NCBI GenBank assembly: GCA_964016885.1
Contig: OZ024766.1
Location: 16,926,001-16,990,000 of the forward strand
Source of the DNA: Eledone cirrhosa
Taxonomy: Eukaryota
Direction of reading: 5' to 3'
DNA length: 64,000 bases
Shown here one piece after another: positions 7,111 through 46,677 of this stretch. The notes beneath the pieces are model-generated. The model ran no database searches. It saw only the letters and a program-made list of their open reading frames with translations, and was not told the DNA's origin. The position numbers were made by a program, and so were the translations under genes. Every line of letters starts with the position of its first letter. Position 1 is the first letter of the stretch.

Positions 7111-7174
7111 ATGAGCCCTATGCTAAGGGTTTAATAAACTAACCATTACTATTTTTGTGATCCTGTCATTGCAG

Positions 7175-7314
7175 CCTTCCACGAAGTGTCGGTGTACCCT
7201 AAAAAGGAGTTGCCCTTTTTCATCCTATTCACAGCAGGGCTCTGCTCCTTCACAGCTCTCCTTGCTCTCCTCACACACCAATATCCTGAACCTATGGGGA
7301 CTGTTGCTAAAACG
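7175..7314 (+). CDS. ST7: ST7 (suppressor of tumorigenicity 7) penultimate coding exon
   Basis: ttgcag| ... |gtaagt; encodes [46 protein letters not shown], matching the conserved ST7 C-terminal TM region as I recall it ([38 protein letters not shown]). Confidence 0.95.
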
Positions 7315-7608
7315 GTAAGTGTCTGCGGTGGTGTGTCTGGTTGTGGTGGTGGTGATGTGTCTGTAGTGGCGGTGGTGTGTCTGGTGGTGGTGGTGGTGTG
7401 TCTGTGGTTGTGGTGGTGTCATTGGTGTCTATAGTGGCGGTGGTGTGTCTGGTGGTGGTGTGCCGGTTACGTTTGCTGCCTGCATACAACACGTCGTAAA
7501 GAGGGAGGAGTGGTCTGACTGCCTCATACCACTCCTCTCTGTTTAAGTCTGCTACCTAGGTGAATGTATGTCTGTGAGTGTGTATTTTTGTAAGTGTCTG
7601 TGTTTACA

Positions 7609-11076: not shown

Positions 11077-11296
11077 TTAATATAGATGAGATTCTACAGG
11101 ACTAGAACTGTTTCATTCTTTAGAAATCATCAGGAATCAGACTATTTATGGTTATGTAAATACAAAAACCTTTTTGCAGTTATATGTATTTTTTATACAA
11201 ATGCTGTAATGAATGTTGACCCACAATATTTGCATATGTATCGGTATGTCTCTTGGCTGAAAAGGAGGTCATATAACTGTCCATTCATTAATAAAT

Positions 11297-44446: not shown

Positions 44447-44637
44447 GAGAATGTTAAAGACATCAGACTGTGTCAACAAATACTCGGGACGGTGTGGACC
44501 CCTTGCTGTGACATTTGTAGGAGAGCTGGCCGAGAGGTTCCTGAAAAGCCCTCGCGGGGTGAAACTCGACTGTAAGAAGGTTAATGACTATGGCACCACG
44601 AGTGACAGTTCCCATCGCAGAAATGACAGCACCACAG
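44447..44637 (+). CDS. Membrane protein exon 5
   Basis: ttcttccag| (M)RMLKTSDCVNKYSGRCGPLAVTFVGELAERFLKSPRGVKLDCKKVNDYGTTSDSSHRRNDSTT |gtgagt; phase 2->1. Confidence 0.88.
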
Positions 44638-44643
44638 GTGAGT

Positions 44644-45453
44644 TACTACTACCACCACCACTGCTACTGTTACTACTGCTACTACTGTTGCTACTAATAC
44701 TGCTACTACCACCACCACCACTGCTACTACTGCTGCTACTACTACTGTTGCTACTACTACTACTACCACCACTGTTACTACTGTTACTGTTACTACTACC
44801 ACTCCCACCACCACGACTGCTACTACCACTACCACCACCACTGCTACTACCACTACTGCTACTACCACCACTACTGCTACTACCACTACTACTAATACTA
44901 CTACCACTACTAATAATAATAATACTACCACCACTACTACCACTACTAATAATAATAATACTACCACCACTACTACCACCACCACCACTATCACTACTAC
45001 CACTACCACTGCTACTACTACTGCTGCTACTACTACTACTGTTGCTACTAATACTGCTACTACCACCACCACCACTGCTACTACTGCTGCTACTACTACT
45101 GTTGCTACTACTACTACTACCACCACTGTTACTACTGTTACTGTTACTACTACCACTACTACTACCACCACCACGACTGCTACTACCACTACCACCACCA
45201 CTGCTACTACCACTACTGCTACTACCACCACTACTGCTACTACCACTACTACTAATACTACTACCACTACTAATAATAATAATACTACCACCACTACTAC
45301 CACTACTAATAATAATAATACTACCACCACTACTACCACCACCACCACCACTACTATCACTACTACCACTACTACTAATGTTGCTACTACTACTACCACC
45401 ACCACCACTATCACTACTACTACTGTCACTATCACTACTACTACTACTACTAC
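44644..45453. repeat. (CTA/CCA)n tract with an internal ~360-bp duplication
   Basis: Visible directly. Confidence 0.93.
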
Positions 45454-45587
45454 ATGGCTGAATACAATAAATGTAATCTGAGTTTTTCGAATATTAATAA
45501 TAACATTCGATTCGTTTGCAATTATGCAAACAAGCCTCATTTTTAAAGCCATGTCAGTAGAATGAACACTTCATTCTTGCTCTTGTG

Positions 45588-45668
45588 TTGGCATGTGAAC
45601 AGAACTGCAGACACTAATGTTTCTGGGTGATCACCCTTCATCAGTACAGCTCACTGTTCACCTGCCAA
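45588..45668 (-). ncRNA. Type I hammerhead ribozyme motif (left arm copy)
   Basis: Exact reverse complement of 46244-46324. Confidence 0.83.
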
Positions 45669-45937
45669 ACTGTCAGAGTAATTGAAAATATATGATATTT
45701 TCTAAAATATACAGTGACTGATTGGCCAGATTTGCATATTCTACTGACATGGCTTCTTTAAAAACGAGGCTTGTTTGCATAATTGCAAATGAATTGAATA
45801 TTATTATTTATATTCGAAAAACTCAGATTACATTTATTGTATTGAGCCATTGTAGAGCGATAACTATTTGTTAGTTATTTTAATTTGGCAAAGCCGGCCA
45901 TTTATCGCTTGTAGACAGGAAACTGACTGGCCTGTCT

Positions 45938-46195
45938 GCTGATATGCATATCTGGCTGATCAGGGGATCAGCTAATATGCAAATCTGGCTGATCAGTGGA
46001 TCAGCTAATATGCAAATCTGGCTGATCAGTGGATCAGCTGATATGCAAATCTGGCTGATCAGGGGATCAGCTAATATGCAAATCTGGCTGATCAGTGGAT
46101 CTGCTAATATGCAAATCTGGCTGATCAGGGGATCAGCTAATATGCAGATCTGACTGATCAGCCAGTCTGCTAATATGCAAATCTGGCTGATCAGC
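45938..46195 (+). repeat. 33-bp tandem repeat (~8 copies) carrying the octamer ATGCAAAT
   Basis: gctaatatgcaaatctggctgatcagtggatca. Confidence 0.9.
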
Positions 46196-46243
46196 CACTG
46201 TATATTTTAGAAAATATCATATATTTTCACTAGCTCTGACAGT

Positions 46244-46324
46244 TTGGCAGGTGAACAGTGAGCTGTACTGATGAAGGGTGATCACCCAGAAACATTAGTG
46301 TCTGCAGTTCTGTTCACATGCCAA
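46244..46324 (+). ncRNA. Type I hammerhead ribozyme motif (predicted GUC cleavage after 46302)
   Basis: ttggcag-gtgaacag-tg-agctgta-CTGATGA-a-GGGTGatCACCC-a-GAA-ACATTAGTGT-C-tgcagtt-ctgttcac-atgccaa: ~21-bp bulged helix I, near-palindromic helix III. Confidence 0.85.
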
Positions 46325-46535
46325 CACAAGAGCAAGAATGAAGGGTTCATTCTACTTACATGGCTTTAAAAATGAGGCTTGTTTGCATAATTGCAAATGA
46401 ATCGAATGTTGTTATTAATATTCGAAAAACTCAGATTTTTATTGTTACTGTTTTTGTTGTTGTTACTGTTGTTTTTACTGTTGTTGTTGCTACTGATGTT
46501 GTTGTTGTTATCTAACCCCCCACCCCACCCACCAG

Positions 46536-46677
46536 TGGTAAACCAGTGCACCGAGACCTACATTGAGAAAAAACTCCGTAAATGTGTGAAACTCCTACAT
46601 GCTGAGGCTGATCTGGGGCAAATTATCAACATCACGGGACCAATATGGACAGAGAAACAGATCAATATGATATGCAA
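46536..46677 (+). CDS. Membrane protein exon 6
   Basis: cccaccag| (V)VNQCTETYIEKKLRKCVKLLHAEADLGQIINITGPIWTEKQINMIC |gtaggt; phase 1->2; homologous to exon 2. Confidence 0.88.

Follow-up and report, generated by a model that had tools for sequence, protein, structure and literature searches.

Metazoan non-LTR retrozymes are described as short, low-GC, non-coding repeats that carry a type I hammerhead with a short, self-complementary helix III and occur in thousands of copies, as monomers as well as tandems (PMC7229834; 10.64898/2026.07.22.740005); in Xenopus, 42-44% of the retrozyme copies are reported to lie in introns (10.64898/2026.07.22.740005), and hammerheads are reported to be present in a squid genome (PMC6962438). 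For Penelope-like elements, partial tandems, inverted 5'-truncated copies and a one-sided tail (PMC8557442) as well as microsatellite targets have been documented (PMC8557442; PMC4209133); their hammerheads are stated to bear an extra nucleotide after A9, to form opposite-strand pairs 100-700 bp apart in Schistosoma and to depend on dimers for cleavage if helix III is short (PMC4209133). Sense-strand self-cleaving motifs of introns are represented by HH9/HH10 of amniotes (RECK, others) and by Cpeb3, which are described as single-copy and deeply conserved (PMC6155905, PMC10919898).

The locus analyzed here is an insertion in a stretch of 64,000 nucleotides of contig OZ024766.1 of Eledone cirrhosa (the window). 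Its repeat family shares with the non-LTR retrozymes the short non-coding unit of low GC content with a type I hammerhead, the copy number in the thousands, the occurrence of monomers and tandems and the short, self-complementary helix III. In contrast to the non-LTR retrozymes, the copies are mostly dispersed, 5'-truncated and often inverted instead of being organized in long arrays, the monomer of ~440 nt lies at the upper limit of the size range (150-450 nt), and the hammerhead is a variant with A-A at positions 10.1/11.1; two consecutive ribozyme units, as in active retrozymes, are lacking at the locus, which possesses one sense ribozyme. The partial tandem, the inverted 5'-truncated copy, the one-sided tail, the microsatellite targets, the spacing of the opposite-strand ribozymes and the extra nucleotide after A9 are shared with Penelope-like elements; differences are the absence of an ORF, the long, canonical-type helix I in place of a minimal motif, the G10.1-C11.1 closing pair that is not located directly beside the core, and the fact that no autonomous element with the repeat as pseudo-LTR was found at 44 GIY-YIG loci. 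With HH9/HH10 and Cpeb3, the locus has the (here predicted) sense-strand intronic self-cleaving motif in common, and a weak resemblance to HH9 was detected by Rfam (see below); unlike those ribozymes, it belongs as a young copy to a mobile family and is predicted to be masked by an antisense arm of its own, and the next exon follows after 234 nt instead of the ~10 kb reported for the Cpeb3-type ribozyme. The young age of the insertion argues against a domesticated intronic ribozyme. Most probably, the locus is a non-autonomous Penelope-type retrozyme copy that entered a microsatellite along with the customary inverted and tandem pieces, and that is silent in its host intron owing to its self-masking and to the lack of a second unit.

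Structure of the compound insertion

The insertion is situated within intron 5 of a protein gene (see Table 1). Its inverted arms (45475-45740 and 46172-46437) comprise 266 nt each and are 96% complementary; direct repeats are spaced by 608 and 611 nt. The initial annotation had proposed an inverted arm of ~266 bp containing an identical antisense ribozyme, a direct repeat with ~611-bp spacing (45738 versus 46349) and the inverted-plus-tandem layout of Penelope-type insertions, and all of these were recovered. A one-sided tail, 5' truncation and the microsatellite bias of Penelope-type insertions were observed in addition to the inverted copy and the partial tandem. The proposed monomer size of ~400 bp without the array was too low, as the family monomer amounts to about 440 nt. 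The 33-nt array comprises ~3 units in typical copies, with one or two ATGCAAAT motifs in 12 of them; ATGCAAAT is the POU octamer, and the array bearing it is a candidate internal promoter or enhancer.

Table 1. Coordinates (window positions) of the insertion, its hammerhead motifs and the adjacent exons.
Feature	Position	Strand	Remarks
Exon 5	44447-44637	+	
Microsatellite, (TAC)n-type	44644-45453	.	left flank, likely insertion target
Inverted element copy	45454-45740	-	5'-truncated
Extra tail	45454-45474		left end only
Hammerhead copy	45588-45668	-	antisense in host pre-mRNA; core at 45644, C17 at 45610
Partial tandem copy	45738-45850	+	element 3' end and tail, without ribozyme
Main element copy	45851-46437	+	larger than the ~440-nt family size owing to expanded array
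33-nt tandem array	45938-46194	+	7.8 units, 6 ATGCAAAT motifs
Hammerhead, type I variant	46244-46324	+	GUC, C17 = 46302
Microsatellite, (TTG)n-type	46442-46509	.	right flank
Exon 6	46536-46677	+	single copy in genome

The sense ribozyme displays the CTGATGA core at 46268-46274, GAAA from 46289 and GUC ending at C46302; CUGANGA, GAAA, NUH, three helices and an open helix I, i.e. the features of a type I hammerhead, are thus all present. Both ribozyme copies are identical (93/93 nt) and embedded in a perfect inverted block of 110 nt (46234-46343 versus 45569-45678). The canonical GUC noted initially was retrieved, and C17 is located 234 nt upstream of the exon 6 acceptor (~230 nt had been estimated), but the motif is not fully canonical: positions 10.1/11.1 (46275/46288) are occupied by A-A, so that the pair beside the core is absent, helix III has 3 bp, and helix I comprises 20 pairs in three segments (instead of ~21 bp); helix II has 4 bp. 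The 10-nt segment of helix III is self-complementary (-8.8 kcal/mol as duplex). A strict three-helix descriptor matched exactly two sites in the 64-kb window, one per strand, and none in 200 shuffles. Among the 51 Rfam matches of the whole window there was no hammerhead; local application yielded HH9 below threshold (12.8 bits versus a gathering score of 52). An extra C in loop II turns helix II into a perfect 12-nt palindrome (46276-46287), for which an inactive dimer is favored in the prediction.

Host gene

The host gene was modeled with 11 GT-AG exons on the + strand and a 437-aa frame without stop (window positions 23554-59292), exons 1, 2 and 11 being supported by splice signals and frame alone. 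When all proteins were searched exhaustively with exon 5 as query, a 369-aa protein was retrieved that belongs to a cluster annotated as "uncharacterised" in Octopus sinensis, O. vulgaris and O. bimaculoides; eight exon stretches matched the annotated Octopus protein in order, with 47-83% identity. The host gene is the orthologue of O. sinensis LOC115232070, an uncharacterised cysteine-rich protein that likely has a C-terminal membrane segment; LOC106879919 is a further octopod orthologue. The Octopus protein is continuous over the exon 5/6 junction, and hence the gene model does span the region of the insertion, as the earlier claim presupposed. The homologue search and the Atlas search with exon 5 gave no match, the orthologue being found by the exhaustive search only; the other match of the latter (P0001) was a repetitive protein and spurious. 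Pfam assigned no family to five host exons. The predicted host protein probably bears a signal peptide and contains four cysteine-rich units of two exons each (phases 1-2-1) as well as a membrane segment; the annotated orthologues begin later, at about exon 3. Nine RNA runs were listed, six of them with shares under 0.1, and four were compared with the locus: X1 and X5 cover just a simple repeat in intron 6, X2 covers nothing and X7 behaves like DNA. The ribozyme and exon 6 are thus not covered in these four runs, and such missing cover constitutes no evidence. Another gene on the + strand is indicated upstream by exon-like stretches at 7170-7315 and from 10158 onward, with a hydrophobic segment.

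Size, layout and age of the repeat family

The relaxed ribozyme core gave 2,834 matches in the genome (control: 1) and the commonest 34-nt core 1,104 exact matches (control: 0); the core version of the window, with one extra C in loop II, was matched six times. For the 3' part of the element 3,050 candidates were obtained, of which 40 were scored. Layouts were compared at 44 loci, merged from the first 30 listed loci each of the exact and relaxed core searches and therefore not random, all being derived from contig C1. A full inverted ribozyme pair was present at 7/44 loci, and in each of them the minus-strand copy preceded the plus-strand copy, as it does in the window; a partial inversion was seen at 13 loci and none at 24, and convergent pairs did not occur among the 44. 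Tandem pairs were found at six of these loci, with spacings of 320-444 nt (eight pairs; 437-444 nt in four of them); the monomer comprises 437 nt with a GC content of 37%. Free 3' ends adjoined a microsatellite in 40/45 cases and carried a tail in 19/45. The locus is ordinary within the hammerhead repeat family and likely one of several hundred similar insertions.

The arms of the window differ at 7/238 positions (3-4%), those of 11 other inverted pairs by about 5%, and copies at separate loci by 8-9%; because of this low divergence between arms and between loci, the family is young, each pair being likely the product of one event. Mismatches between the window arms were absent from the ribozyme (0/81) in comparison with 7/157 outside (p = 0.10), which hints weakly at homogenisation or constraint. 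The other inverted pairs showed no such contrast, and conversion between the arms would account for it simply, since both window arms carry an extra C that a sister copy (described below) lacks. Among the private changes of 53 copies, no A-to-G excess, as edited templates would leave, was found, A>G amounting to 6.7 and T>C to 10.0 per 1000. The 12 matches of a supposed subfamily with longer helix III proved to be ordinary copies.

A sister copy (L153/L009; G000:C27, about 17,060,970-17,061,830) is located 90 kb away and corresponds to window positions 45469-46231 with 96% identity. It has the same inversion junction (95/95 nt identical at 45851-45945), whose exact match in the genome is confined to the sister copy and the window; its flanks differ, it ends just before the sense ribozyme, which it does not include, and it lacks the extra C found in both window arms. 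Gene duplication was rejected as its source, as exon 6 is single-copy and the flanks differ. The sister copy may be a retrocopy, truncated at its 5' end, of a minus-strand transcript that had not been cut, its shape being as expected for this, or else a copy made at the DNA level. At a distance of 1.1 Mb, another copy (L003/L036; G000:C27:18093843) has the extra loop II C and the expanded 33-nt array in common with the window; by this likeness, the two appear as a local subfamily on the contig of the window.

The A-A mispair at positions 10.1/11.1

A-A at positions 10.1/11.1 was present in 87 of 88 distinct family copies and, among the copies found without using the ribozyme, at 22/23 and 23/23 of the respective positions. 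The mispair is fixed in the family and therefore does not reflect decay of the window copy; no family copy with the canonical C directly before GAAA was detected under the pattern tried. In the copies found independently of the ribozyme, the core was intact in 13/23 and differed at 16/276 positions (5.8%) versus 314/3382 in the flanks (9.3%). The frequent helix I variants (those in at least 10 copies) all retain pairing as G-U, G-C or A-U. In an alignment of 81 of the 88 copies and the window (rows with indels dropped), 93.5% of the cells were paired, a value reached in 22/500 shuffles, and covariation was not above the control (54/500 shuffles). Mispairs at 10.1/11.1 have served as a rejection criterion in a hammerhead search (PMC3088659). 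No publication on an octopus retrozyme, an A-A variant or an ADAR-ribozyme switch was found, although supplements might list such variants; by the fixed A-A, the family is new within a known kind of hammerhead repeat. Other repeated hammerhead-like motifs were observed near GIY-YIG elements (window position 11133 on the - strand, L096, L100, L101, L102, L104, L109, L110); several of them have U-U at 10.1/11.1. All these motifs represent additional families, which may escape standard descriptors.

Search for an autonomous partner

GIY-YIG sequences are abundant in the genome (10,597 candidates, 150 scored). An autonomous partner of the repeat was not found at the 44 GIY-YIG loci taken from the 150 scored: the repeat was twice a neighbor and never the end of the element itself. 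A broken Penelope-like element (L106:1321-5520) combines sequence resembling a reverse transcriptase with a GIY-YIG region, and its own 3' end recurs in inverted form at the 5' side; the hammerhead repeat is present as its neighbor only. Ends of this GIY-YIG family were located near 7/44 loci of the hammerhead element versus 2/60 control tiles (p = 0.034), a proximity that could be explained by common microsatellite targets.

According to the mechanism proposed, tandem source copies would be transcribed and cut into ~440-nt monomers by paired (dimeric) hammerheads; the monomers would be reinserted by a Penelope-like reverse transcriptase with a GIY-YIG nuclease, which would routinely leave an inverted, 5'-truncated copy. 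Upon transcription of the host gene, the antisense arm would be made first and capture the emerging ribozyme in a duplex of ~266 bp, upon which the intron would be spliced normally and the duplex maybe edited without consequence.

Predicted folding and timing of cleavage

In the best predicted fold of the lone ribozyme, the core is paired with helix III; this fold is superior to the active one by 6.6 kcal/mol at 37 °C (8.4 kcal/mol at 20 °C). A double-hammerhead of two copies came within 1.4 kcal/mol of two monomers; the dimer of lowest energy is an inactive fold (-86.2 versus -68.2). Tertiary contacts are not considered in nearest-neighbor energies, by which hammerhead folds tend to be placed at a disadvantage. 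With the arm present, the duplex is predicted to surpass the active fold by 74-87 kcal/mol. The masking of the ribozyme by a long dsRNA hairpin, as suggested initially, is supported by this predicted value, but the suggested choice of the pre-mRNA between ribozyme and hairpin is not, as the folds are far from balanced and a dimer partner in cis is absent. In terms of equilibrium energies, not kinetics, the growing transcript is predicted to fold best as arm duplex once its end reaches 46275, with 27 nt still to be transcribed until the cut site; up to 46268 no long-range pairing was predicted, nor was an early "toehold" pairing before emergence of the ribozyme. Upstream structures are reported to block ribozyme assembly, with fast exchange in cells (PMC2817708). 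Since the inverted pair is strand-symmetric, with the antisense copy first and the sense ribozyme second on either strand, its orientation in the gene is uninformative. The duplex ends 98 nt before the exon 6 acceptor, and the arms contain 169 adenosines; it would be a plausible ADAR substrate.

Published cleavage rates of 0.1-0.8 per min were used here (PMC7229834, PMC10919898); the half-life of the Cpeb3 intronic ribozyme, 2-3 min, is described as matched to the 9,931 nt before its next exon (PMC10919898). Transcription of the 234 nt to exon 6 takes about 4-14 s (at 3.8 or 1 kb/min; the speed of the host polymerase may differ), and the computed proportion of free ribozyme cut before exon 6 is 0.6-5% at 3.8 kb/min and 2-17% at 1 kb/min. 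Such timing speaks against a switch as well. Splicing may lag behind the polymerase, which would leave more time for a cut.

Alternative explanations

The fixed A-A would also be consistent with a catalytically dead family hammerhead, the repeat being spread without cleavage as a SINE-like or DNA-level passenger; with this reading, which we regard as unlikely, the silent intronic copy is compatible. Besides the near-universal mispair, the failure to find, with the pattern tried, a copy in which GAAA is directly preceded by the canonical C, the non-significant covariation and the report of U-U as the best-tolerated mispair at 10.1/11.1 (PMC3088659) point in this direction; against it stand the preserved pairing of the frequent helix I variants, the lower divergence of the core compared with the flanks and the extra nucleotide after A9, a described trait of Penelope hammerheads (PMC4209133). 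The family ribozyme is likely active, probably in need of two copies.

At the level of the host gene, a pre-mRNA that partitions between cleaving ribozyme and masking duplex, tuned by ADAR and thereby setting host expression, is highly improbable. The sense orientation and intact core of the ribozyme close to the acceptor, the identity of the arms throughout the ribozyme, their adenosine content and the splicing-tuning intronic ribozyme reported for Cpeb3 (PMC10919898) would suit such a switch, but the energy gap strongly favors the duplex, editing of the sense arm would presumably also strike the A-rich core, the monomer is predicted to be inactive with no second sense copy in cis in the window, and the distance to the next exon is 234 nt versus 9,931 nt in the reported Cpeb3 case. 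In addition, the layout is generic (7/44 loci) and strand-symmetric, and the insertion is lineage-young: its arms differ by 3-4%, versus 17-50% protein divergence between orthologues of the host gene. Effects without catalysis, i.e. a slowing or alteration of exon 6 splicing by the duplex, edited or small RNAs derived from it, or a ATGCAAAT array acting as DNA enhancer or internal promoter, are less remote and still improbable. The distance of 98 nt between the duplex and the 3' splice site, the six ATGCAAAT motifs versus one or two in 12 typical copies, and the sister copy, which could be a retrocopy and would then imply transcription of the locus, are in their favor; an octamer-type promoter is used by newt satellite 2. 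On the other hand, the last 98 nt of the intron, with the expected branch point and pyrimidine tract, are free of the duplex, and expanded tandem arrays occur throughout the window (99 rows). The insertion is probably carried along by the host gene as a passenger and does not serve as a switch.

Implications

A wider interpretation, put forward as tentative and rather doubtful, would be that of a recently amplified retrozyme family whose functional A-A hammerhead escapes standard searches, whose Penelope-type inverted copies act as built-in silencers sparing intronic sense ribozymes, and whose masked, uncut compound RNA may itself be retrocopied, as in the sister copy at a distance of 90 kb. 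If a hammerhead with natural A-A at the most conserved pair of helix II still cleaves, current hammerhead searches would miss whole families. The family also raises the question of whether inverted copies are over-represented in introns through neutralization of the ribozyme, and by such insertions, a considerable stock of long duplexes is indicated for the introns of an animal group in which A-to-I editing is known to be heavy.
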